Of a stretch of DNA of 64,000 nucleotides, positions 170 through 62,754 are shown piece by piece. The stretch is from Carcharhinus amblyrhynchos. Its lineage: Eukaryota. The translations under genes were made by a program, and so were the position numbers. Under the pieces are notes generated by a model. It was not told the origin of the DNA. It did not search any database and saw nothing but the letters and a program-made list of their open reading frames with translations. Position 1 is the stretch's first letter. Every line of letters begins with the position of its first letter. The stretch spans positions 23,932,001 through 23,996,000 of the forward strand of contig OZ336876.1 in the NCBI GenBank assembly GCA_965287045.1, given 5' to 3'.

Positions 170-865
170 TTCAAATTAGGAGCAGAGATAGGACACTCAG
201 CCCCAGGAGCTTGCTTCGCAATTCGATTAGAGCATGGCTGATCTGACTGTAACCTCAGCCCCAAATGCCTGTCTACCCCAGTAACCTTTCACCCTCTTGT
301 TAATCAAGGAAGAGGGAGGTGATGGCCAAGTGGTATGATCACTATTCATCCAGGAACTCAGCTAATGTTCTGGCAACCCAGGTTCGAATCCCACCATGGC
401 AGATGATGGAATTTGAATTCAATGAAAAAATATCTGGAATTAAGAATGTACTGATGACCGTGAAACCATTGTCGATTATTGGAAAAACCCATCTGGTTCA
501 CTGATGTTCTTTAGGGAAGGAAATCTGCCATTCATCCTTGGTTTGGCCTACGTGTGACTCCACAGTCACAGCAATGGGTTGACTCTCAACTGCCCTTCAA
601 GGGCAACTAGGAATGGACAATATATGCTGGCCAGCCAGTTATGCCTATGTCCCATGAATGAATGTTTCAAAATCTATCTAGTTCTACCTCAAAAATATTC
701 CACTGCCTTTCGAGGAAGAGATTTCCAAAGACTCAGAACTATCAGAGAAATAAATTCTCCTCATCTCCATCTTAAATGATTTTTAAAACAGTGATGCCCT
801 AGTTCTAGATTCTCCCACAAGAGGAAACATCTTCTCCACATCCACCCTGTCAACAGCTCTCAGGT
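170..865 (-). mobile_element. Old CR1-type LINE 3' fragment, split by a SINE insertion
   Basis: Reverse-oriented CR1 3' UTR and ORF2 end (aggagcagagatagg...catggctgatctg...). Breaks at ~310 and resumes at ~668 (aatctatcta...ttccactgcc...ttccaaagactc). Confidence 0.7.
314..664 (+). mobile_element. tRNA-derived SINE with LINE-derived tail
   Basis: Perfect A box TGGCCAAGTGG (323-333) and B box GGTTCGAATCC (381-391). Tail caagggcaactaggaatgg...cccatgaatgaatg is homologous to LINE 3' ends at 11390-11470 and 47620-47670. Confidence 0.85.
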
Positions 866-1815
866 TTTAACATTTCCATGAATGAAGAGACACAAACAAT
901 GCACTACATTATCGAGGAGAGTCCCCACGACAGACAGAGTGGCAGACCAATTGTCTTACACTCATCAAGAGAACTGGCTATCAAATGGCTTTAAATTTGC
1001 TAAATAATAATTAAGACTCCAACCCCATGAAATTCTCATACCGTAGAAAGTTGGCAACCAAGGCAGGAATGTGGGCTTAATCAGTTCTACCTCAAGTGGT
1101 AAGCTACCTCATAGCTCCTATAGCTATGCAGAAATGTCTGAGATATGAGTGTTTGTCTGCAAATAGATGGTTCATAGCTCCATCCACAATCATAATGATG
1201 TATGTCAGCTTCAATATCTGAAGTTGTACCGCTGAATCCAAAAGGAATTCTTCAACTTGCATGACACATGAATTTGTGGCATGCACAGACCTGTGCTGGC
1301 GTGTGTGGTAAGACGCATTATAAAAACTATGTTTATGACCTACCCAGTGGTATTCTCCAGATGTGTGCAAAGTTGGAAAGGACATTGCTGGTGGCGTGCC
1401 CTTTCTGTGCAATGTATTGATGATGACATGTTCCATGGAGCAGATGGTCTTACTTGTTCTGTACATAGGTACTGGAAACATTAAACAGAACAGTCTTGCT
1501 CATTGAGATTTACTGTGCGCGGCAGGCTGAATGAGCTCCCTCAGTTTGAGAGAAAGAGGGAGGGGAAATAAACATATGTGCACATGTAAATGATGAAGCT
1601 TTGTGAGGAAAATGTTGAAACTTGCCACCTATATGATCGTGTACCCTCAGCAAATCCTGCTTTTTTTTAACTTTAGAAAGAATTGAGTCAAGTGGCTATG
1701 GCATTCCCTGAATTGGATATGTATCAAACAGGCATGTGATGAGTGCGTGCTAATTTAGTACCTCCCAGGAGACCGACTTTGTGTTACTTTCACAAGTGCT
1801 TCACGTTACTGAATA

Positions 1816-2138
1816 AATCATAGAATTCCTACAGTGCAGAAGGAGGCCATTTGGCCCATCAAGTCTGCACCGGCCACAATCCCACCCAGGCCTTAATCCC
1901 CTAACCCCCACATATTTATCCTGCTAATCCCTCTGACACTAGAGTGAATTTAGCACGGCCAATCAACTCAACCCGCACATCTTTGGACTACGGAGGAAGC
2001 CGGAGCACCCGTAGGAAACCCATGCAGACACGGGAGAATGTGCAAATGCCACACAGCCAGTGTCCCGAAACTGTAATTGAAACCAAGTCCCTGGCACTGT
2101 GAGGCAGCAGTGCTAACCACTGTGCTACAATGCTGCCC
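1816..2138 (-). mobile_element. HE1-like shark SINE
   Basis: Reverse strand reads gggcagcattgtagcacagtggttagcactgctgcctcacag...ctgcactgtaggaattctatgatt. Homologous to copies at 6663, 8679, 20682 and 41274. Confidence 0.85.
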
Positions 2139-3162
2139 ATTAAGCACATCAAGATTGAAGAGTGGCCTTATTTGTAAGCATTTATTTAAAGCTTTGTCCT
2201 GCAATATTCTGCCAGTTTGGTAGATACTGACAAAGGATGCTTGAAAAGCTAAGTACTTCAATTGTCTATATTGATATTCTTCAACTTGATGAGAATAAAA
2301 AGGGTGCAGTGGGTCAGCTCATTGTTCACAGATAAATCAGGGCAATGGAGAATATGAGGGTGTGTGTGCTATTTTCATTGTAAATAAGTTAGTAGAGAGT
2401 AATGAAATGAGCTAAATGCCGATGCACTGACCAAGTCCACACGCTGTGCCCACCATCTTGGAAACCTTTGTAATAAGATTCCTAAAGATAGTCGTGCTCC
2501 AGTCAGTTAGAGGGCTTGGAGCAAAACAATTCTCTCCCTTTTCTCAATGTGTTCCAGGCAAATGAACTGATAAATCAGTCACTGTGTTTTTCCCCTCAAA
2601 AACACAGATTGCAAAGCAGTTTTATTCTGAGACATCCCATCCTAACCACATTCTCTGGTTTGTGTTCAGTGTAATTCTCATTAACACTGATTGACTTGTT
2701 TTGCTGATTAACTTAACCTCTTCAGAAAATAGACAAAAGAGTCGAACAAACAAATCAATCCTGTTAGAAAATACAACTAGCGTCAGCAATAAAGGTTGGT
2801 CTCCTGTAGAGCGAAAACAACACTGTTGTAGCAAAAGCAAAATCCACATCTTATTCAGGAAACATAAACAACACAACAACAGTATCAGATACAGTGGGGG
2901 AGAATCTTTTCTTCACAGCCTGGGCAGTAATTTGGCAGAGTGCATCATTCGCTCTCTGATTTTAATTCCCTTGATTACAATTGAACTTGTGATAAGGCAA
3001 ATTCTACTTAAGATGCAAAATTGTAATCGAGACAAATAATTTCAAAATATACCCCCTATATATTCTACAATGAATTTCTCCTTCCCTTCATAACGCCCAA
3101 AATAATGACTGCTTCAAATTACTAAGTGCCAAACTTACAGATGATCATACTATCACACAAAA

Positions 3163-4401
3163 GGGTGGTTTTCTGACCTCACTGGAGACCTAAAAATTGG
3201 TTTCATGCCTGGCACCGAACAGTTTACAATCATCCCAATTCCTTTCTAAAGATGCAAACCGGATCACGCCCAGAAAGGGCACAAAGCCAATTAACATATC
3301 TAAAGTTGTATTTAACTATGCATAGCCCATTCAACACTGGATTACCCCAGCTCCCAGGACTTATTGATCTTTGGGCCACGCAAGATTGTCACGCTGGGGG
3401 GCTCAGAGTCCTTGGGGACGTGGCTGGATAATGCGTTTAAGGCAGTGCTCACCAGGCACAATGGCAGTGCCAGTTGGGGACTGCCAGTGTGATGGAGAAG
3501 CACCAAGGGGTTGGGGCCTATGACGGGGCGGGGGGGGGGGTGGAGGAGTGGGGTTGCTATGCAGGGGTCTATGCAGGAATGGTCGTACAAACGGGGGGCA
3601 TTCAGAAGTGGACCATGATGGGGGCACGTCAGGGGTCTTTAAGGGGGACCCATTGGGAAGGCCCCATTGCCGATGATCTATGTTGGGGAGGAGCATGTTG
3701 ATGGGGGAGGGAGAGGGTTTTGCCAGTACACAGAGACCAGGGCACCCTTCCAAAACGGGGCCCGAGCACTCACTGTGTGTTTAGGCTCTGCCCTTCCCAG
3801 AATTAGCATGCAACACACCCCTCTCCCACAAATGACTGAATCTCCCACAAATGACTGAAGAGACTCTTCCTGCTCAGAAAGGACAGTAGGACTAGGGGGC
3901 ACAGCCTCAAGATAAAGGGGGGGCAGTTTAGAACGGAGTTGAGGAGGAACTTCTTCACTCAAAGGGTGGTGAATCTCTGGAATTCTCTGCCTGTTGAAGT
4001 GGTGGAGGCTGCCTCGCTAAATATTTTTAAGACGCCGGTTAATGGGTTTTTGATAAGAGAGGGGATTAAGGGTTATGGGGAGAGGGCGGGAATGTGGAAC
4101 TGAGCCACGACAGATCAGCCATGATCTTATTGAATGGCGGGGCAGGCTCGAAGGGCTAGATGGCCTACTCCTGCTCCTATTTCTTATGTTCAAATGTGGT
4201 CTGGATTGTGCCTGACAAACCATAGTGGATGGCTTTGGTTTTATCGCTGTTCCGGCACTTTGGGTCGAATTTTCTGGTCCTGTTGCAGTGATTGGAGGTT
4301 TGGCTGTGTGGCAACTTCTCCTTCTTTGCTTGCTGCACTGTTCGAGCATGAACAGCCAGAAAATTCTAGCTTTAGTTGTTTTTTTGAGGAAATTTCCGCC
4401 C
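3163..4401. mobile_element. GC-rich non-autonomous DNA transposon (Harbinger-like MITE) hosting a CR1 insertion
   Basis: Degenerate ends gggtggttttct / ggaaatttccgccc and a G-rich interior like 36295-37155 and 56205-56998. Boundaries uncertain. Confidence 0.4.
3860..4191 (+). mobile_element. Young 5'-truncated CR1 LINE copy
   Basis: About 95% identical (hand alignment) to the reverse complement of 5853-6184. Encodes the ORF2 end (GHSLKIKGGQFRTELRRNFF...GIKGYGERAGMWN) plus 3' UTR ending ttcttatgttc. Confidence 0.92.
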
Positions 4402-5729: not shown

Positions 5730-6655
5730 TGGTTGGGATATTAAAGGGTGCAGAGAATGAGGGAGAGAGTGGGATTCAACGGGATGGAATATTAAACAGT
5801 GTGGAGAGTGAGTGTTTAGACTGGGTGGGATATTAAAAGATAAGAACATAAGAACATAAGAAATAGGAGCAGGAGTAGGCCATCTAGCCCTTCGAGCCTG
5901 CCCCGCCATTCAATAAGATCATGGCTGATCTGTCGCTGCTCAGTTCCACTTTCCCGCTTTCTCCCCATAACCCTTAATCCCCTCTCTTATCAAAAACCTA
6001 TCAACCCGCGTCTTAAAAATATTTAGCGAGGCAGCCTCCACCACTTCAACGGGCAGAGAATTCCAGAGATTCACCACCCTTTGAGTGAAGACGTTCCTCC
6101 TCAACTCCATTCTAAACTGCCCCCCTTTTATCTTGAGGCTGTGCCCCCTAGTCCTACTGTCTTTTTTGAGCGGGAAGAGTCTCTCCACCTCTATCCTATC
6201 CATCCCATTCATCATCTTATACGTCTCAATGAGATCTCCCCTCATTCTTCTAAACTCTAACGAGTACAAGCCCAGTTTATTCAGCCTCTCCTCATAGCTC
6301 AACCCCCTCAACTCCGGTATCAGCCTAGTAAACCTCCTCTGCACTCCCTCCAAGGCCAAAATATCTTTGCGCAGGTGCGGCGCCCAAAACTGCACACAGT
6401 ACTCCAGCTGCGGCCTCACCAATGCCCTATACAGCTGCAGCAAGACCTCCCTACTTTTATATTCAATTCCCCTCGCTATGAAGGCCAGCATCCCATTCGC
6501 CTTCCTGACCACCTGCTGCACCTGCAAGCTGGGTTTTTGCGACTCATGCACAAGGACCCCGAGGTCCCTCTGCACCGTCGCCTGCTGCAGTTTTTCGCCC
6601 CGTAAGTAATAGATTTGGAGAGTGAAATTGTATTGGTGGGGTTATTAAAGGTAAC
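5730..6655. repeat. Degenerate ~40-50 bp minisatellite (gggatattaaa...ggagagtga) interrupted by a CR1 insertion
   Basis: Units at ~5733, 5781 and 5823, resuming at 6615 (ttggagagtgaaattgtattggtggggttattaaag). Confidence 0.6.
5842..6610 (-). mobile_element. Young 5'-truncated CR1 LINE with uninterrupted ORF2 C-terminus
   Basis: ORF 5940-6575 (QRDLGVLVH...LYRALVRPQLEYCVQFWAP...RRMRGDLIETYK...GIKGYGEKAGKWN) has no stops. Repeated aagaacat tail and AGAT duplicated at 5838-5841 / 6611-6614. Confidence 0.95.
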
Positions 6656-11389: not shown

Positions 11390-11531
11390 TTCTTATTCAT
11401 ACATGGAACATGGGCGTCACCGGCTGGTCAGCATTTATTGCCTATCCCTAGTTGCCCTTGAGAAAGTGGTGGTGAGCTGCCTTCTTGAATCGCTGCAGTC
11501 CATGTGCTGTGAGTTGACCCACAATGCCATT
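11390..11531 (-). mobile_element. 3' end of CR1-Zenon-like LINE
   Basis: Reverse complement reads atggactgcagcgattcaagaaggcagctcaccaccactttctcaagggcaactagggataggcaataaatgctg, the same as 47570-47650. Confidence 0.8.
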
Positions 11532-13479
11532 CGCGGGTCCTCCTATCTGAATATGCGTGTTCAGTTGTATGGATTCCAAGAAGGTGGGGATGGGGACACT
11601 GAGCTCTAAAATCAAACTGCATATCAGTATATGTTGATCAATGTCATCATCTACTTGTTCTGCATATTTCTGGATTCTGTTAACTGTGCACACTAACACC
11701 GCATAGTCCAGTGTAAGTTGTCCCAGTAGTCGACATACAGCATTTTGGAGTTCTAAGGGCATCCACAGTATCCAAAATGAGCCCAATTTCTTGCCTGCAT
11801 TCTCTTGAATTTTTTTGTATCTGTATAAAACCATTATATTGTTTTGGACAATGAGGGTTAATTTGGCCAGCTTTGATTTTTTTCTCTCACTACCCATCCA
11901 TAATCAATGAGATGTTTTCTGATTTTCGATTTCTCCCTTAATAAATAGTGGCATTTCTTCTCCAACCCTTAAGTTTGGAATGTGTAAATCCTCCATAAAT
12001 AATTTGCAGAGCAAGCCCAACATCAAGTGAAAGAGTTAGTTTATTTCTCACACACAAATCATTTTCTGTGTTGCTGATACTTGCAGCTCCTTTTAACACA
12101 AAAGAAAGTTACTGGTACTTTCAACTCCATTCAAATCAATCTCTAAATTCTATCTGCATAGTTGCCAATCTTTAGCTGCATAAAGAGTTTAATGATTTAA
12201 TGAGAAAAGTTCCTACACCAGTGTTCTAAATGACTGGAACTCTTTAATGGTAGTGACAATGAAGGAGAATGATAAAGTGCATTAATGCATGAATCCAAAT
12301 CAACGGAACAAAGCCCTCAGTCTGCTCAATAAATGATGTTCTGTCTGAAAGGGTGAAACAAAAACAAACATTCATGTTTTCAGGTGCACTATTATTACTT
12401 TTGACGTGTTACGTTTGATGAAGAAATGAGACCTGTAAAACCATTTGGAAGATACAGATAACTGCTTGTGTTTCCTAAGTCGTTGTTTTGGCAGATGACA
12501 TTTAAGTCCAAAGCGTAAGAGCCACAGAATTCTGATCAGAAATTGGAAGCTCCGTTAAAGAAAAATAAATTGCTTCAAGATAAACAAGAATAAAATTAAG
12601 CTCAAAATGTGAAAAGTGGAACATTTGACTCAATCACGGTGGAGATGAATTGGAACAAAAAGTTTCTTCGAAGGCGAAGTAGTTCTTAAAATTCTTTCTC
12701 CCCTGAACAAAAAAGAAATGCAGAAAATTCTGAGAATGACTCTCTTTCGTCTCCAGTTTTCTCAGGTTATAAAAGGTTCACACCACTTCTTTTATGTTTA
12801 CTTTCTTTACTTTGTCGCCAAGATAAGATCCACGTACGGTCAGAAAGATTACTTCTCAATCATTAGTACGAAAACACTTCAACATCAATAAGCAAGTACT
12901 TAGGACTTGGAGCAAGTCCAATGGAAGGAAGACAGTTTGTGCCTTACACATCAAGATTTCTAACAGAATGAAAGAGAGAACTGATGCTCAGTTTGTGTAA
13001 AAAAACTCACAGCCATTAAAAATAAGCCTTGAGGCAAAATATGTCAAGGAAACTGTTTTGAAAAAAAAATGTTTAAATAATGCTCCAAAAGCTGATGCTG
13101 CATTTTCAAAAATATGAATTTTCTATCATCTGAATAAAGGGCATGACGCATTGTTGTTGATGCATTTAGCAGAAAATTTCTGTATTATACAATTAGAAAA
13201 GGTGATATGAATGTCATGTTAATTGACATATAGCTAGGAGCAATACTAAGTATAAAACATATAAGTATATTGATTACTGCAATATTTGCACCTCTATTTA
13301 AGATTGGAATGACCAACACTCAGCAAGCTTCTGGAATAAATGAAGAAATCATTGACAATAAATGCAAAATAGCTTCATACAGCAAAGTATATTTCAACAT
13401 TTTTCAACCAGAGAAAAACAGTTGGCAAATTGAATGGGCTTTTGCCCAATGTAGAATGAATAGTTAGTTATACTGATAA

Positions 13480-16665: not shown

Positions 16666-18182
16666 TGAGGAAGAGAGCACGTGAGAGAGAGCAGGAGTGA
16701 TAAAACGATGTTGGAGTAGTAGGTCAGCCGTACACCAAATCCAGAGATTTGTCCCTGCTGATGACATAGTAATGCCAAAACAACCATCAAAACTAGAGGA
16801 AGAAAACAGGATGCTCACACACAACCTGCATGATCTCCTGGAATGATACCTCCAGACCTAGCAACTCAGTCCCAAACCAGAGAAGACAGATATGTTGTGT
16901 CCCACCTGAACAATAACACTGCTGCGAAAGAAGAAAATAAAAGCCTCGTGCTGCCTCAGGAGATAGAAAGTCAAGGAAAAAAACTAAGGCACAGATGACT
17001 TACTAGCAATTAATGTTAAATAAATACATCCACAGATGTAAATATCTCTTGCTTTCTGCCCTAAGGTCAGAATACAATTCTTGGTGTGCCAGTGCCTCAT
17101 TTGTCTCACTCAAGCTATTTCTGCTGGTCAACAGTTGAACACCAAACAGCAGAACAAAATGACTTAGAGAGGCAATGATCTGTAATGAATCTGATGTGAA
17201 CTGCCCAGTTTGCAGAGAAACAAGAGGAAGAATGTGTGTAATTATAGCAAATCTGGCAAAGAAATGAAAAGAGAATGCATCAGATCAATTCCCATTAAGC
17301 AAACATAATAAGAATTTAGTTAACACCTCTCCTTGTTTGACTGAGTGAAATATTGGTTTCATCACATTGAAATTGTCTACAACTCAATTCAGATGTCCAG
17401 CATTGCATCGATAATAACAGCAATATTATTTTTCCCAAACAATAACCAATGGGCTGTACGTTAAAAAAAAACCTAGCAATGGAAACTCAGACATTTATTC
17501 CTGGGCAGTTTGACATACAGTCAGTTCATGCCATTACTCACTGTTATCATATTGTTAAGTTAACATACTACTTGGTTCCAAAACAATCCAGGAGGCAAAA
17601 CAGACCACACCAAAAAAAAGTTTTGTTCACAGAAGACCAAGACATGCCCTTCTGATGAAATATTAGAGATCATTCTACTCTTAGATCTATTCCTTGGCAT
17701 CATCTTCTTCAGAAAAGGATAAGTAAAAGCATACAAAAAGGAGACAAGTGAAGTCCAGGATGTTCTTAGGATGTGAAAGATGCAAATGCAAGATTATTTT
17801 TCCCTTTCGAGCAAGATTGGACTGTGAGTATTTGCAAGTTGTCTAACCAAGGACAAAGGTGTGAGTGAATGTCTATGTACTGTGGCTTGAGATTTCTTCT
17901 CTGAATTCTAAGGCTATATGAATCTCAGCTACCACCTTGGCCAAGGTCACCTAACTCTTGAGGTCCAAAATTGAACTTGAAAACTTCCTGGCTATGGTTC
18001 ATTACCACATTTTTTGGCAAAACTTTGATTGCTCATATTTCAAATGGAAATGAAATCCATTACAAATTCAATCAACTAAAGTAAGGATGAAAACCAATGA
18101 AGCATTGTCTGAAACAAGTTCTTTCATCAATTTGTCGTTCAAGTTTGTTCACGCAGCTGTATGATTCACTTTTATAATTTTA

Positions 18183-18494
<312 letters not shown>

Positions 18495-19480: not shown

Positions 19481-20681
19481 AAAACAAACTGGTTACAGCC
19501 AAGAATGTGAATGTTTAGCCAGCTCTCTAGCCTTTGTCAATACTGCTTTGAGCAGCTAGCAGGTGCTTAGCGTGCAGAATGGGGACAAATTTCCTTCTTA
19601 ATTTTTTTCTCCATAGCTGTAGAGAAGAATCATACTTTTGTTTGATAGTTTCCCAGTGCAGAAGACAATAATAGCCACCACACTGTGGCACTAGCGTGCT
19701 ACTCCATCTCAGTTTAAGTAGTTAGAACATGTATTGATGAAGTCAGAGGACGAAAACCCAAATCCCATTTTCTGCTATTAAATTCAATTTGGATAGAGCA
19801 GGTGTTCCATTCCCTTTCAATTGAGCAAAGGAAGAAAGTAATGAACTCACAAGGAAAGGCAGGTCTTGGAACCTACTGTGGACTATTGAGCAGGCTGACT
19901 TTGGAGTGGCTCTTGGCACAGGTCATTGCATTGTTAGCGCAGCAGAACTGGTGCACATAATTGCACTGACGTACAGAGTGCACATAATTATACTGATGTG
20001 CAGGGTGCAACAGGCAAATGAAGGTAGGCTAGGACATTAAGTAATGACCTCCAAAGTATATGCATGTGGCCAATGCTACTCTTAATGTATGAGCATCACC
20101 CATGATTAACACATGGATAAAAAGTTCTATAAGTTGTGTCATTCATCAACATTCAACTTCTCCAATACTTGGCTGTTGCTAAATTTTGGAGAGTCCATTA
20201 AGTAGAAAAAAATCCAAAAAAGTACTTATAAAATAGCTTCAGTTGTAAAAACAATGCTTTGAATATTTGGGAGATATGTATGAGCATAATATGCCATTCC
20301 TTGACCACATTGGAAAATAAATTCATATCGTGGCACAAAGAGAAAACAAAGAGCAGATTATAAAACTGCTCAATGAACTAGTGAGGAATGCATTGAAGAA
20401 TGTGGCACTGAGCCATAGAGAAAGGTCTCAGAGACCCAGGTATGGTTGCTTATTTATGACTAGGTAGATTATTTCTGGCAAGATAATAGAACTGATTACA
20501 GCCTTCCTCTCTGTTACTCCCTCCTGAGAAAGTACTCATCAGCCAGCTGGACAGAAGATCAGGTTTGGTTGCATTCCATTCCTCAACCTCAACCTATTCC
20601 CTGAAACTGGTTAATTTGTTCCATATCTAGGTTTTGCGACAAGAATGGCCAATGTGGGACAAGTACTGCGACCAATCAGCA

Positions 20682-21015
20682 AACCAGTTGGCACAGCTGC
20701 CTCACAGCTCTGGGGACCCAGGTCAATTCCAGTTTTGGGTGGCTGTCTTCATGGAGTTTGCATGTTCTCTCCATGTCTGCATGGGTTTCGTCCAAGTGCT
20801 CCGAGTTCCTCCCACACTCCAAAAACGTACAGGTTAGGTTGATTGCCCATGCTAAATTACGCCTTTGTGTCCAAAGATATGGAAGTTAGGTGGATTAGCT
20901 ATGACAAATGCACAGGGTTAAGGGATTGGATAAGATACTCTGTTGGACAGTTGGTGCAGACTCGATGGGCTGAATGGCCTTTTCTGCACTGAGGGATGCT
21001 ATGATGATTTTATGA
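20682..21015 (+). mobile_element. HE1-like SINE
   Basis: gttggcacagctgcctcacagctctggggacccaggtcaattcc...tggagtttgcatgttctc...ctgcactgagggatgctatgatg. Confidence 0.82.
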
Positions 21016-21158
21016 ATCTCCAATTTCTGCAGAATCCTGTAAGCAACTTTAATATTTTACTGTTTCTTAATGAGCCCAATTTATGTTCAGTTCTAACAAT
21101 GCATGTATGGATTAATCTCAACTAAATACATAAAAATTCCCTACTCTGCACTAGAAAT

Positions 21159-22185
21159 GGAATGGTAGCATGATGGTAATATTAGTGGGCTAGTAATCCA
21201 GAGGCACGGCTTTAATGATTTGAAGATATGAGTTCAAGTCCCATCATTTCAGCTGGTGGAATTTTAAATTTGGCTAATTAATAAATCAGGAATACAAAAT
21301 TTGCCTCAATAATGGTGGCCAAAGAACTACCAGAGTGTTGCAGAAACTTATCTGTTCCACTCATACTGTTTCAGAATGGGAATTGTGCCATCATTATCCA
21401 CGCTGACCTACATGTGTTTCCAGACATGCCCCCGGCAATGTGGTTGACTCTTAACTGTTCCCCAAAATGGTCTAAACAAGCCACTTAGTTATCCTAAATC
21501 ACTAGAAAAGTCAAAAAATAATGAAGTTTGGACCACTCAGCATCATTGTAGGTACTGGAAATGACAGTGACATACTCTGCCCAGTCAACCTTGCAACCAT
21601 TAACATCCGGTAACTTGTCCCAAGATCGAGAGAGCTGACGCACAGGGCTAGTCAAGCAGCATCTTACATTGCCATGCTCTCTTAAGCCAAGAGACATATC
21701 GAGCACCTTCATTATATTCCCAGGACACATCCACTAGAGGTAGCAGAAGCATGATACATAATCCAGAGGGAGTGGCCCTGGGAGTTCTCTGTGTTAACTG
21801 TGAACTCCATGAAGTCTCGAGGCATCAGGTAAAATATGGGCAAGAAAACCTTCTGCTGATTATCAGTACTCCTTCATATGGGATGCCACTCGAAAGAGAT
21901 ACTCAAGGTAACAAAGACACTAAGTGTATTTGGAGTGGAGGATTTCCATTTCCATCACCAAGAGTGGTTTGGTAGTACTCATACTGATTAAGTTGGTCGA
22001 GCCCAAAAGATCATATCTGCCAGACTGGGCCTGTAAAAGATGGTGAGGGAACCAAAAAGGAAAAACCTACTTGACCTCATCCTCACCATTCTATCTATCT
22101 TCGATACATCTGTCCTTGACTGTATTGGCAGGAGTGACAACCCTACAGCCCTTGTGAAGGTGAAGTGCCATCTTCTTACTGAGGT
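21159..22185 (+). mobile_element. 5' portion of CR1-Zenon-like LINE: tRNA-derived head plus degenerate APE endonuclease
   Basis: A-box-like TAGCATGATGG (21166) and B-box-like GAGTTCAAGTCCC (21230); body homologous to SINE 314-598. Then APE remnants: EGVALGVL...HEVSRHQVKYGQENLLLI, a GDF-like motif at ~21935, and VREPKRKNLLDLILT...IGRSDN. Confidence 0.75.
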
Positions 22186-23620
22186 CTATTGTACATGGTT
22201 TTGGTGTCTTTATCTAAAGAATGTTATACTGGCCACAGAGGAAGTGATACATGGGTTCACCAGACTGATTCCTGGGATAATAGGATTGTTAATGAGGAGA
22301 CATTGAGGATACTGGGTTTATATTCCTGAGAATTTAGAAAAATGTGAGGTGAACTCATTGAGACATACAAAATTTTTACAGGGTTCAACAGGGTAGATGC
22401 ATGAAAGATATCCCTATTTGTGGGATCGAGAACCAGGGGTAAGTTCTCAGAATAAGAGTACATACAACATAAAACATTACAGCGCAGAACAGGCCCTTCG
22501 GCCCACGACGTTGCGCCGGCCAGTTAAAAAACAATGACCCTCTAACCTAAACCAATCCCTTTCCATCCATAAACCTATCCACGGATCTCTTAAACGCCCC
22601 CAAACTAGGTGCATTTACAACTGCAGCAGGCAGGGCATTCCAATCCCTCACCACCCTCTGGGTAAAGAACCTACCCCTGACATCCGTCCTATAACTACCA
22701 CCCCTTAATTTAAAGCTATGCCCCCTCGTGCTAGCTTTCTCCATCCGAGGAAAAAGGCTATCACTGTCCACCCTATCCAAACCTCTAATCATCCTGTATG
22801 TTTCAATAAGGTCCCCTCGCAGCCGCCTTCTTTCTAACGAAAACAACCTCAAATCCCTCAGTCTCTCCTCATAGGACCTCCCCTCCATACCAGGCAACAT
22901 CCTGGTAAACCTCCTCTGCACCCTCTCCAAAGCCTCCACATCCTTCCTATAATGTGGGGACCAGAACTGCACACAATACTCCAAGTGCGGACGCACTAGA
23001 GTTTTGTACAGTTGCAACATGATGCTGCGGCTCCTAAATTCAATCCCCCTACCAATAAACGCCAAGACACCGTATGCCGTCCTAACAACCCTATCTACTT
23101 GATTCCCAACTTTCAGGGATCTATGTACATAAACGCCAAGACACCGTATGCCTTTCTAACAACCCTATCTACTTGATTCCCAACTTTCAGGGATCTATGT
23201 ACACATACACCTAGATCCCTCTGTTCATCCACGCTATTCAGAGTCCTACCGTTAGCCCTATACTCTACACATCCATTACTCCTGCCAAAGTGAATTACCT
23301 CACACTTTTCCGCATTAAACTCCATCCTCCACCTCTCGGCCCAGCTCTGCAACTTGTCCAAGTCTCCCTGTAGACTAAGACACCCTTCCTCACTATCAAC
23401 CACACCTCCGACTTTGGTGTCGGCTTTTTAGGACTAAGATGAGGGTGATGAAGCTTTGGAATTCCCCACCCGAGAGCTCTACGGAACTCAGTCACTGAAT
23501 ATATTCAGGGCAGAGACTAATAGATTTCTTGATTTCTTTTGGCTCAAGTTATAATGCAGGAAAATGGAGCTGAGGAAGAAGGTCAACTGTGGTCAAGTTG
23601 AATGGTGGAGCAGGCTTAGT
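22186..23620 (+). mobile_element. Older CR1 3' fragment split by a younger CR1
   Basis: FTRLIPG...LGLYS.EFR..GELIETYK up to tctcagaataagagt (22459), resuming gtcggctttttaggactaagatgagg (23419) through the 3' UTR. Confidence 0.8.
22461..23421 (-). mobile_element. Young CR1 LINE (RT C-terminus plus 3' UTR) with internal 74-bp duplication
   Basis: ORFs 23113-23403 (LQGDLDKLQSWAERWRMEFNAEKCEVIHFG) and 22547-23065 (LYKTLVRPHLEYCVQFWSP) are separated only by the duplication-induced frameshift. Confidence 0.93.
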
Positions 23621-24763: not shown

Positions 24764-24974
24764 AAAAGAGAAAATGCTGGAAAATCTCAGCAGGTCTGGC
24801 AGCATCTATGAGGAGAGAAAAAGCTGATGTTCCGAGCCCAGATGACCCTTTGTCAAAACTCAAAACATCAGCTCTTTTCTCTTCTTACAGATGCTGCCAG
24901 ACCTGCTGAGAATTTCCAGCATTTTCGCTTTGGTTTCAGGTTCCAGCATTTGCAGTAATTTACTTCAATCGAAT
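24764..24974. mobile_element. Penelope-like inverted repeat with 10-bp TSD, inside a CR1 3' fragment
   Basis: Arms aaagagaaaatgctggaaaatctcagcaggtctggcagcatct / agatgctgccagacctgctgagaatttccagcattttcgcttt. TSD TCCAATATCC at 24754-24763 and 24975-24984. Confidence 0.8.
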
Positions 24975-25737
24975 TCCAATATCCTGCCCCCTCCTCCCTT
25001 CCCTTCCCTATCGGCTTTAGAGCTATAACTATAGAAATCATTAGAATGGCTTTTGGAAGACATATTTCCAGTCTATATGTAGATGATAGGAAGTCACATT
25101 GAGCTCACTGCTGTCTTTTCCTTTAGAGGAGAAATTCTCTGTTGAGTAAAAACATTTTTCAGCAATCACCGTGCTACCAGTAAATAGAATGTCTAAATCA
25201 AGTAGTCAAAATGATTCTGTGATCGCTTTCATAGCGAGAAGATACCTCTTTTGTCCAATTTTGAGCAAAACTTCCATCTTTTTTGACATCACCATGTGCT
25301 GCAGTTCCTTAAAATGTACCGAGCCCATCTGGTTTATATTGCATCGGTTGCCTGTGCTCTAAGCTGAACAAGATCACTGTTTATAACTCATCTGATAACA
25401 AAACAATTCAGACCTTCGAATGAGTATCCAACATACCATATAAACGTGTATCAACGTGTATCCTCAAAATGTCAGCCAGGTATTCAACAGATTAAATATC
25501 ACTTCATTTCGTACAGCAGGATTTTCCAGCTCTTCCTGTTGGTGGGATGCGTGAGCCACGCATGAAGTAGCAGACATTGGCGGGACTGGAAAATCCCAGT
25601 GTTTTGTTAACTTCAATTAACTTTGGTGTATTTACTTCCAAAATAACATCAACACTTACTTAAACTTGAACAGTTTGATGTTCAGCAAATGTTTCTTGGA
25701 GGTCAATGTGAGGTCAAGGGATCCTTGGAATTGCTCA

Positions 25738-26076
<339 letters not shown>

Positions 26077-34930: not shown

Positions 34931-35833
34931 TTGCCACTGATCATGAAGCACTGTGTAGCAACTGGTTTGAAATAAAGTCACGTTAATTGAAACATAAATT
35001 AAAAATGCTAAGCAAATCAAATGAAACCGTTCCACAATTGTCTTACACACCACTGCAACACTTTAGAAATAAGTTCCTTTCTGCCGAAAGAGTTTAATTT
35101 TTAACGTAATTTGCAATCACCAATTCAGTGATAATGAGGATGCCAGTGGCAATCCATCGTTATATATCAGTGTGCTGAATAAAACATGAATGGGATTCTT
35201 GGTAACTGTTCAGTGGTCCTATTGGAAGTAAGAGTTTACGGATAGACCATGATTTCTTGGCTATGCTCAGCTATAAATTTATTCTTAGCGAATAATCAGA
35301 CTGTAGCTTGCTATTTCCTATCCAAGTCACAGATGAAGTATCATTTCTATTGATAAATATCAGAGGGCAGTTGCTGCCTGGAATCACAAACTGCCTTCAG
35401 TAGAAGTGGAACAAATAATTATTTTTTTTTAATCCAAAGATTTAAGTTGGTCATGGTTCAGCATAATAACAGTTAGCAATGTCTAATTACTTCTGAATGA
35501 GTAGAATACCACATTCAATGTCCTCACATTATACAGTCAATTTCATTCCTGACTGATAATTAATAATATATTTCAAAAAATAATGATCAGGCTCAGTTCC
35601 TAACTCCTTTTAACGCTATAAACCCTTAGCTCTAAATTCTCAGGCCTTGAAAATTACATCAGTTCATCAAAGAAAATGTAAGCATTAATTTCAAAAATAA
35701 GACGTAGATGTTCATTTTCTTTCTCAAATCCTTAGATTATCCAGTAATAAATCTGCCTGCTCTGGTTTTCATTTCTTCCCATTCCCACACTTCATTCTAC
35801 CCATATTTATTTTCAAATGTCTGTACAATATTA

Positions 35834-36241
<408 letters not shown>

Positions 36242-45584: not shown

Positions 45585-45850
45585 AATTCTATGGCAAGTC
45601 GCCAAGCAACTGACTCCCTAAATCCCATCCAATTTCTACAAGCTTCAAGTCAGGAGTGTGATGGAATTCTCTCCAATTGCCTGGATAGGTACAGCTCCAA
45701 CAAGGATCAAGAAACTCAGTGTCAAATAGAACAAAGCAGTCTATTTGATCAGCACTCCATCCATCACCTTAATCATTCACTTTCTCCATCACCTTCTCAC
45801 CCTATTACCCAAAGCACACTCCAGTCCACTTCCAAGAACTTAGCTGAGGC
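45585..45850 (+). mobile_element. CR1-Zenon-like fragment, duplicate of 47103-47310
   Basis: Shares aatcccatccaatttctacaagcttcaagtcaggagtgtgatggaa with the 47103 copy. Confidence 0.8.
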
Positions 45851-46989
45851 CCACTGCTGGTAAGATAGGGGACTTTAAATTATTTCCACCCTGTGGAGAT
45901 GCAACCGCCACCAGCAGCTTGCCTCAAGCATGCAGAGGAGAGGGGGCTGAGGACCAATTTCTATCTATTTTTCAGGAAATTAGTTCATTCACAACACCAG
46001 ATCTTTCCAGAAAGTGGGCCCATTCTAATTTCTACTTTCACAAACACAACATCTGGTTAAATGATGCCTTTTCATTGCTGACTCTGAGGTGCAGGAACCA
46101 GAAGGGCAAAACCAACTGCTGAAACATTGTTCACTAGCTCCTTCCTCTTCCTCTGAGTGACAGCTGAGGACCTGCATTAGTTAACAGCTGGAGCCAACAG
46201 AAGGAAATGCAAGCAAAAAGTAATTAAATACAGCTAACAAAAAGCTTCATGAAAAGTGCATGCAGGGAAAAAGCATACACCAATTAGGCCCAGAAAGGAT
46301 CATAAAATAGCTATGACACAATACTTCCTAACAGGTTTACTGGGGTTTATGGATATTTACTGTCACTTTTCTACGTTATCCTTTTTTGCAATGAAACTTC
46401 CATTTAGTCATATAGGAACGTTCAACTTCTACTCTCATCTGATCAGAAAATTGAATTGAGCTGGTATTATTTGCAATATTTAAGTAGGACTCCTTGATGT
46501 TCAATTCCATCATCCCATATGGATAATATATATGCATGGTCTTGTTTCTAGACACTTTTCAGACATCAGAAAGCCTGGGACAAAAGATAGCATTTGACCC
46601 ATTCACAGGATGGGGAAGGCGTTTGAATTATATGGACAAGAGAGGTGAAGAGGGCAAAATGGAGTAGTGCAAAAGAAATGAGCTTGATAAGGTCCATGCC
46701 AAATATTGGTTGGTCAATCTGAGTCTTAGTAACAAAAAAGCTCATAACTGCCTTTATCCATCTTGCTCCGTATGACAGCCAAAACAGTTACAAACCTAAC
46801 ATCTATCCAGTTTCTTTTTCAAGGAGCTGAGACACTCCACCTCACCTGTTTTTTGCAAGAATATTTTAGCATCCCTATTAATCGACAAGACAGTAACATT
46901 TCTCCAAATATCAAGCTAAAATTAAACCTGTATTTATTCATCTTGTGCTTATGGTCCCTCTCCAGTGACGTGAACATATAATCTAGCTT

Positions 46990-47672
46990 GGAACTTATCA
47001 CTGAATTCCAGATCATCAACATCTGGAGCCTATCATTGACCAGAAACTGAACTAGGTCATCCACGTAAATACTTTGGCCACAATAGCATGTCAGAGGCTG
47101 GGAATTCTGTGGCAAGTTGGTAAGCAACTGACTCCCCAAATCCCATCCAATTTCTACAAGCTTCAAGTCAGGAGTGTGATGGAATATTCTCCAATTGCCT
47201 GGATGGGTTCAGCTCCAACCACTCAACAAACTCAGTGCCAACTGGGACAAAGCAGTCTACTTGATCAGCACTCCATCCATCACCTTAAACATTCACTTTC
47301 TCCACCGCCAGCACACAGTGACACCTGTGTGTACCATCTACAAGATGCATTGCAAAACTCACTAAGGCTCCTTCGACAACACCTTCCAAACTCGTGACCT
47401 CTACACTGTGGAAAGACAGGATGGCGGGTGCATGGGAAGAACACAATCAGTGAGTTCCTCTCTGAACCACACACGCTTCCTGACTTCAAACAACAGCAAT
47501 GTTCCTTCATTGTAGTTGGGTGAAAACACTGGATCTGCCTCACGAACAGGATTGTGGCTGTACCTACACCACATGGACTGCAGCAATTCAAAATGGCAGC
47601 TCACCAACACCTTCTCAAGGCAATTGGAATGGGCACTAAATGCTGGGATGGGCAGCAACATCCCAAACCCAA
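46990..47672 (+). mobile_element. CR1-Zenon-like LINE 3' portion
   Basis: QRLGILW...YKLQVRSVMEYSPIAWMGSAPTT...LRLLRQHLPN, then a 3' UTR ending cttctcaaggcaattggaatgggcactaaatgctgg. Confidence 0.82.
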
Positions 47673-47686
47673 GACTAATAGGTTCA

Positions 47687-62030: not shown

Positions 62031-62304
62031 AATTGAAAAAAAAATTTCCCCAGTTTGAAAGACAGCTATTGCTAGTTTGTCACCAATGTTATTCTTCAAT
62101 GCTCTCAGGCAGACACACAAAGTGATCCAGTGATGCCACCCATGTAGTTTACATCCACCAAAACGGGGAAGTGTCTGTTATTTGATTGATGCTTCTATAC
62201 ACAAGAAAGCTGGGATTGGAACATTCAATCCAAGAGCACCCTACTGGGCATTGGTGGCCAAACATGTAACTTCACCATGTAACCCACTTGGCTTTCATCC
62301 TTCA

Positions 62305-62754
<450 letters not shown>

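Follow-up and report, generated by a model that had tools for sequence, protein, structure and literature searches.

A tRNA-like head at the 5' end of an elasmobranch CR1-Zenon LINE

The locus and its surroundings

The window, which is the whole 64 kb stretch of DNA that was analysed, contains at 21159-22185 the first kilobase, at the 5' end, of an elasmobranch CR1-Zenon LINE, in a copy that is old and truncated at its 3' end. All of its parts are on the plus strand, beginning with a tRNA-like head that is the 5' end of the LINE (21159-21253) and continuing with a conserved body of ~215 nt (21254-21469), a LINE-only linker of ~130 nt that includes a basic N-terminal extension and was delimited partly by eye against consensus sequences (21470-21601), and the remnant of an APE endonuclease broken by stops and frameshifts (21602-22185). 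The RT half of the element is absent from this copy, as is its 3' end, and the CR1 3' fragment at 22190-22460 (plus strand, boundaries approximate), 3' of the APE remnant, is outside the Zenon element. Exons for CUB and Sushi domains are on the minus strand at 18180-18494, 25735-26076, 35831-36241, and 62302-62754, and the Zenon copy is intronic and antisense to this host gene, which from its mix of domains would be a large CSMD-like gene.

Other repeats are present in the window. A different multi-copy SINE, probably the V-SINE HE1, is present upstream of the head at 20670-21005 (plus strand), with 150 bp between its end and the head, and the window has ~10 partial copies of it. At 3856-4197 and 5846-6641, on opposite strands and ~1.7 kb apart, two young CR1 3' ends are 95% identical over 342 bp, with the second retaining an open frame of 233 aa. 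In a CR1 copy, a 74-bp tandem duplication (23055-23141, 23129-23215) disrupts the reading frame. The near-perfect inverted repeat of 150 bp at 24774-24922 is MITE-like and matches a plant miRNA model at 60 bits, as a hairpin only.

The head carries an A-like box, TAGCATGATGG, at 21166-21176 and a B-like box, GAGTTCAAGTCC, at 21230-21241. In the whole 64 kb ARAGORN finds a single tRNA-like gene (21158-21253), which it labels as tRNA-Thr, and it finds none in 500 dinucleotide shuffles of 21101-21300; with the relaxed setting (ps80) it calls tRNAs almost everywhere and these results were discarded. The Rfam tRNA model RF00005 matches 21159-21251 full-length but weakly, at 14.3 bits and E 5.5, and the folding energy of the head is ordinary in comparison with shuffles (z -0.57). 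A functional tRNA gene at 21159 was rejected on the Rfam score, the gathering threshold being 29. The head is a decayed tRNA-like sequence, not a tRNA gene, and the initial annotation, which had described a tRNA-like head from the two boxes, is in this respect borne out. Nor can 21159-22185 be classed as a tRNA-derived SINE (SINE2), in that the head with its A and B boxes is followed by APE coding sequence and the element is not short and non-coding.

Head and body together have a counterpart in the short element, at 314-598 (E 1.9e-15 with nhmmer), with 188 of 279 aligned bases identical, and each outscores 1000 of 1000 shuffles in this comparison, which agrees with the homologous body of ~300 bp first described there. 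The sequence common to the short element stops near 21469, with the N-I start of the APE at 21602, so that the coding sequence does begin ~130 bp beyond the SINE-shared part, as had been proposed; between the two, the linker has an A-rich tract at ~21505-21520. Searched against contigs from viruses, metagenomes, and prokaryotes, the body pattern has no match, a weak test in collections nearly without animal genomes. The idea that the body is a Meta domain found no support, its motifs being absent from the MetaSINE supplement file that was searched (PMC4824008).

The APE remnant retains the motifs DFHFHH (21941), LDLILT (22070), and RSD (22130). Pfam gave no APE match on the three degenerate frames, and the APE alignment gave no match to viral contigs. 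With the degenerate translation, phmmer found 21 proteins at E<=1e-3, the best at 1.6e-9. PF14529 (Exo_endo_phos_2) is present in all six relatives scanned, five from these 21 proteins and one other, and through phmmer and tblastn matches to proteins bearing this domain the APE at the locus is identified as being of CR1/Zenon type. The motifs and the protein matches together confirm the degenerate APE coding that had been reported after the head and body. A full-length shark Zenon ORF was not found by word-indexed protein searches, in which only non-shark-looking relatives were matched. Pieces of Zenon APE are also present in two predicted database proteins, P0001 (a zinc-finger array) and P0010 (a CWC25 model from the horn shark), as either exonised repeats or gene-model artefacts.

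In its type of APE, its 5' sequence, and its absence of ORF1 the locus agrees with CR1-Zenon. The APE relatives, and 5' motifs that are specific to the elasmobranch Zenon consensuses, support membership of the CR1-Zenon family as judged from sequence, and the family had been named as CR1-Zenon-like at the outset. The leader from the first base to the APE start is 443 nt and holds no ORF1. According to the part of PMC13343379 that was available, no Zenon carries an ORF1, this being a universal trait. The absence of ORF1 therefore stands, but the tie that was drawn between it and capture of the head does not, since ORF1 is missing from all Zenons and also from L001, a headless relative; its loss did not come from capture of the head.

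The 5' end across elasmobranch Zenon elements

Zenon elements from five elasmobranch species are given in a 2026 supplement (PMC13343379), of which the rows seen here are SquAca_Zenon-1, -2, and -3 and the single Zenon-1 rows of CarCar, ScyCan, RhiTyp, and HypSab. Comparison was of the first 400 nt of the Table S2 rows, by eye and with exact motifs. Over this part of the table all seven elasmobranch consensuses, which are 2,886-3,314 nt long, share the locus's head, body, and linker at their 5' end, and this head and body are found in none of the three hagfish and coelacanth Zenon rows. Window motifs of 14-20 nt match elasmobranch Zenon rows only, among ~1,000 rows, with one 8-mer motif additionally matching 5 unrelated rows. 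By these motifs the locus is nearest to the SquAca type, two of its motifs being exclusive to SquAca rows, and a 19-nt motif from the head matches SquAca_Zenon-1 and -3 only. Judged by eye, the A box is ~7-11 nt from the first base in the elasmobranch consensuses, and, for all the indels nearby, both boxes can be made out in the consensuses of sharks and ray, although the ray consensus has a B box that appears degenerate. The spacing between the boxes differs among the consensuses.

The locus shares its head, body, linker, and absence of ORF1 with the elasmobranch CR1-Zenon of PMC13343379, as represented in the rows seen, and differs from those consensuses of 2.9-3.3 kb in being an old copy without the RT half. 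In Table S3 of the same source the denominators per family are from 59 to 2,313, with one cell garbled. The words 'tRNA' and 'promoter' have no matches in the main text of PMC13343379, and in the parts of the paper available the head is apparently present but unremarked in the published Zenon consensuses.

Contigs from four runs, matched to the window at 80% likeness, provide a view of the family that is separate from the consensuses. Depth in the unique flank at 21044-21137 is that of single-copy sequence (12.9, 9.1, 2, and 13 in the four runs), and in the bin 21138-21184, where the head begins, it is 1379, 909, 147, and 970, a rise of 70-110-fold in all four runs, with multi-copy peaks in the head, body, and APE. 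In run X5 one contig extends across 20962-22088, which demonstrates that a second organism has the junction as one continuous sequence. In three of the four runs the body is linked to the APE in contigs of other copies (21470 to 22014 and 21458 to 22059); the sides of these joints are 24-36 nt at 80% likeness and prone to repeats, and the joints come from among the 15 of 125 that were listed.

The head-to-APE arrangement is almost certainly family-wide in elasmobranch Zenon. It might be thought that a SINE inserted by chance upstream of a truncated LINE, or that the LINE targets a fixed site in a SINE, given that the copy is old, that it adjoins other repeats, and that the window has a single head-to-APE junction. 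Chance is hard to reconcile with seven independent consensuses that share a 5' end running into the linker and with the body-to-APE joints in contigs of other copies, and insertion at a fixed site with the finding, described below, that the supposed SINE tail comes from the coding end of the LINE itself. Both are hardly credible, and chance juxtaposition is refuted unless all seven consensuses were mis-built identically. As far as the consensus rows seen and the depth rise at the head can tell, the junction is not unique to this locus, and no full-length members with another 5' UTR and an ORF1 were found, all seven consensuses having the head and none an ORF1.

The short element and the origin of the head

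The short SINE-like element at 314-668 (plus strand), of which there is one copy in the window, has a head and body (314-598) joined to the last ~70 nt of the LINE (597-663), and so is made up of the LINE's 5' ~285 nt and its 3' end. Its segment 597-663 matches LINE 3' ends at 11461-11395 (84%) and near 47600. A 5'-truncated Zenon 3' end on the minus strand (11395-11550) has the last codons ..HHFLKGN* and the 3' tail common to the short element, and a separate Zenon C-terminal ORF region with its 3' UTR is on the plus strand at 47020-47680, part of it duplicated at 45585-45860. A 204-bp piece of this 3' ORF is present twice, 1.5 kb apart and with 90% identity (45585-45788 and 47103-47304). Zenon copies elsewhere in the window finish in short A-rich runs.

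The tail of the short element begins inside the last ORF codons (..HHFLKGN*), which shows that it is derived from the LINE and excludes site-specific insertion into a SINE. The flanks of the element both map to position 5993 of one CR1 copy, which means that it inserted as a unit. In the consensus sequence seen, three of its motifs match RhiTyp_Zenon-1 alone and the motifs of the locus match SquAca only, which would suggest that the short element nests within the LINE subfamilies. It is thus very probably an internal-deletion derivative of a different Zenon subfamily and not the donor of the head.

In having only the 5' and 3' ends of a LINE, 314-668 has the trait of a SIDE, or bipartite LINE derivative. 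Indeed, the Persaeus SIDE of Lepidoptera is non-autonomous and consists of a Zenon 5' end, the ORF's end, and the 3' UTR, and elements of this type arose several times via internal deletion, according to the part of PMC6740152 consulted. The short element matches this build. Persaeus is described there as without tRNA homology or a Pol III promoter, whereas the shark derivative carries both boxes and is for this reason SINE-like in appearance. The notion that bipartite derivatives are restricted to RTE, Ingi, Vingi, and R2 is contradicted by the Zenon-derived Persaeus (PMC6740152).

The initial annotation had instead taken 314-598 for a SINE that was captured by the LINE, a view that the coding end in the tail and the nesting of the motifs with RhiTyp_Zenon-1, in the consensus portion compared, do not sustain. 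Capture of the 5' part of an old SINE family, independent of the LINE, would fit either mechanism considered below, and a tRNA head must after all derive from a tRNA or a tRNA-SINE; a SINE tail could have left as its relic the A-rich tract that separates body and ORF, and the body is without similarity to the leaders of relatives. Beyond the nesting and the tail, this origin is opposed by the fact that Zenon repeatedly spawns such derivatives, for example Persaeus (PMC6740152), and by the absence of the body motifs from three sequence collections and from the searched files of two SINE-superfamily supplements, MetaSINE (PMC4824008, one of two files) and bivalve SINE (PMC11481361, 8 files), the search covering these files and not the figure alignments. 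On balance it is unlikely.

Heads of this kind are familiar in SINEs. HE1 (V-SINE), SacSINE1 (DeuSINE), and the MetaSINEs have tRNA-derived heads with A and B boxes like that of shark Zenon, and the MetaSINE heads are closest to tRNA-Thr in the text seen of PMC4824008, which is the label given by ARAGORN to the Zenon head. The shark SINEs HE1 and SacSINE1 have other partner LINEs, HER1 and CR1-4_DR-like/L2 (PMC5499810, PMC3747384, each seen in part). Bov-tA, AfroSINE, and SINE2-1_EC are bipartite LINE-derived SINEs with a tRNA head, a LINE 5' part, and a LINE 3' end (PMC5786205, the portion available); in these the head is on a deleted, non-coding LINE, whereas in shark Zenon it is on a coding LINE. 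A parallel in that portion is a one-sentence mention of RTE-1_DAn and elements related to it, LINEs with a tRNA-like sequence matching SINE2 elements (PMC5786205), although that element is of the RTE clade and its tRNA-like part was filtered out as a nuisance match, and the shark element is a Zenon. A search of the full-text literature, with Repbase, Dfam, and most subscription papers outside its scope, yielded no account of a shark Zenon that carries a tRNA head; the tRNA-headed shark Zenon is apparently an unremarked feature of a known LINE family, of which earlier notice is possible. SINE-derived 5' ends are reportedly found on ruminant BovB.

The relatives used for comparison were the best 80 of 200 metagenomic loci, fetched with the APE alignment. 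L001 ranks first or second against the three shark pieces, and L001-L003, with ~35-41% identity to the shark pieces, are at or near the top and have in common a short leader of their own. L001 has a single ORF of 1004 aa and no ORF1; at 450-3750 it is an apparently intact Zenon-like element, with a leader that opens with a hairpin and with a TAA-repeat end, which makes it a useful headless control. At the default ARAGORN score there is no tRNA call among the best 80 of the 200 metagenomic loci, and the relatives' leaders have no significant similarity to the shark head and body. A regular expression for the A and B boxes found nothing in the leaders of 38 relatives (38 of the 80 loci scanned), but it is insensitive, having missed the shark locus itself. 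A by-eye likeness of the shark body and linker to the L001-L003 leaders was rejected, a profile finding neither window locus and 14 of 15 pairwise tests giving p>0.05 (lowest 0.02). Also rejected, as gappy, were the faint matches that L017-L024 gave with the short element (E 0.3-4.8).

The head has not been seen in the hagfish and coelacanth consensuses, the lepidopteran derivatives, or the metagenomic relatives, the first two as represented in the published parts consulted. The absence of ORF1 appears to be old and general and the head to be a gain of the elasmobranch lineage, which is likely because the metagenomic relatives are headless and Persaeus is without tRNA homology. The gain was probably by a template switch onto the RNA of a tRNA or tRNA-SINE, which would have replaced the ancestral leader; its date and route are only loosely constrained, as the relatives are distant.

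Transcription of the headed LINE

The 5' end of a full-length insertion is the 5' end of the RNA that was copied, and an A box and a B box together form a type-2 Pol III promoter. The element represented at the locus would be a Zenon LINE of ~3.3 kb with a single APE-RT ORF and no ORF1, in which the boxes may serve Pol III as an internal promoter of type 2. The copied RNA would then begin at tRNA +1 and every full-length insertion would bring its own promoter with it, as a SINE does. The consensuses, in the 5' sequence compared, do begin at tRNA +1. This start fits initiation by Pol III, and equally cleavage by RNase P or an internal promoter for Pol II, and the 5' boundary does not discriminate between them, since in LINEs transcription from internal Pol II promoters likewise begins at +1. 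It is about an even chance that Pol III makes the template RNA.

Runs of four or more T (T4) terminate Pol III transcripts, and a check for depletion of TTTT on the sense strand had been suggested. The three shark Zenon LINE pieces (1,844 nt) have 1 such run versus 3.9 expected, so that there are indeed fewer than expected, but not significantly so (P=0.10). Adding the short element and the duplicated piece, which are not independent, gives 1 versus 5.2 expected (P=0.034). The single run of the shark pieces is T3 in the SquAca consensuses, and by eye there is no T4 in the first 400 nt, the part compared, of any of the seven elasmobranch consensuses. CR1 controls have 10 runs versus 9.5 expected, and L001 has 7 versus 6.6 expected; in the long ORFs of relatives there are 4-36 T4 runs in all 38, some of which are redundant, with 5 of the 38 being without T5. 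The T4 deficit of shark Zenon is suggestive only.

An uncapped Pol III RNA of 3.3 kb with many upstream AUGs would make a poor mRNA. In this copy the leader has 13 AUGs, the last of which, at 21521, is in frame with the APE (81 nt). There are, however, 8 extra nt after 21597 in the orthologues X5 and X9, and in the ray consensus the distance from AUG to APE is 92 nt (counted by eye in the sequence available), which would indicate that this AUG was ancestrally out of frame. The APE frame extends upstream into a basic stretch, likewise in L001, and the in-frame AUG of L001 is CTG in L002 and L003. Together these features make a non-AUG, cap-independent start of the APE-RT plausible, and the protein would then be made cap-independently from the Pol III RNA, probably from a non-AUG start. 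Alternatively, the APE-RT may be supplied in trans when Pol II reads through copies within introns. From the headed LINE, a ready-made SINE-like element such as 314-668 would arise in one step by internal deletion. The full proposal, that Zenon is an autonomous LINE transcribed end-to-end by Pol III, with an uncapped RNA and a non-AUG start of the APE-RT, and hence a 'giant SINE' that yields true SINEs, is possible but doubtful.

The head may, on the other hand, be a passenger or part of an ordinary Pol II 5' UTR or internal promoter, with Pol III serving only the short derivatives. A capped RNA would remove the problem of translation, and internal Pol II promoters are the rule for LINEs in the part seen of PMC5786205; the T4 deficit is not significant and the ray B box, in the consensus as available, appears degenerate. 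Less easily accommodated are the boxes and the tRNA +1 start that are still recognisable in the shark and ray consensuses, the T4-free first 400 nt in all seven of these, and the long ORFs of the headless relatives, each of the 38 having at least four T4 runs. This reading falls well short of even but has an appreciable chance of being right. Quite improbable is that the tRNA-like fold is a processing signal at which an RNase P-type cleavage frees the 5' end of the element from host co-transcripts. The copies here are intronic and the 5' ends of the consensuses seen coincide with the mature tRNA +1, and 5' self-processing is described for several LINE clades (PMC5786205, the portion available), with HDV-like ribozymes processing the 5' ends of R2, RTE, and Ingi. 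Cleavage of this kind is not favoured by the fold of the head (z -0.57), that of the short element being worse (z 1.52), by the box-to-box length, which varies among the consensuses compared, or by Rfam, which has no ribozyme match here or in 10 relatives.

LINEs and SINEs are set apart by polymerase, coding elements depending on Pol II and non-coding ones on Pol III, and here an abundant vertebrate LINE has, in sharks and rays alike, kept a tRNA head exactly at its 5' end. Annotation of shark repeats will divide this single element into a 'SINE' and a 'LINE', and should the head be a passenger, the observation would be worth no more than a useful annotation note. If the boxes do act as proposed, shark Zenon would be a natural test of Pol III driving a protein-coding retrotransposon and of the translation of uncapped RNA, and deletion of the middle of a headed LINE would be a one-step path to new SINEs.
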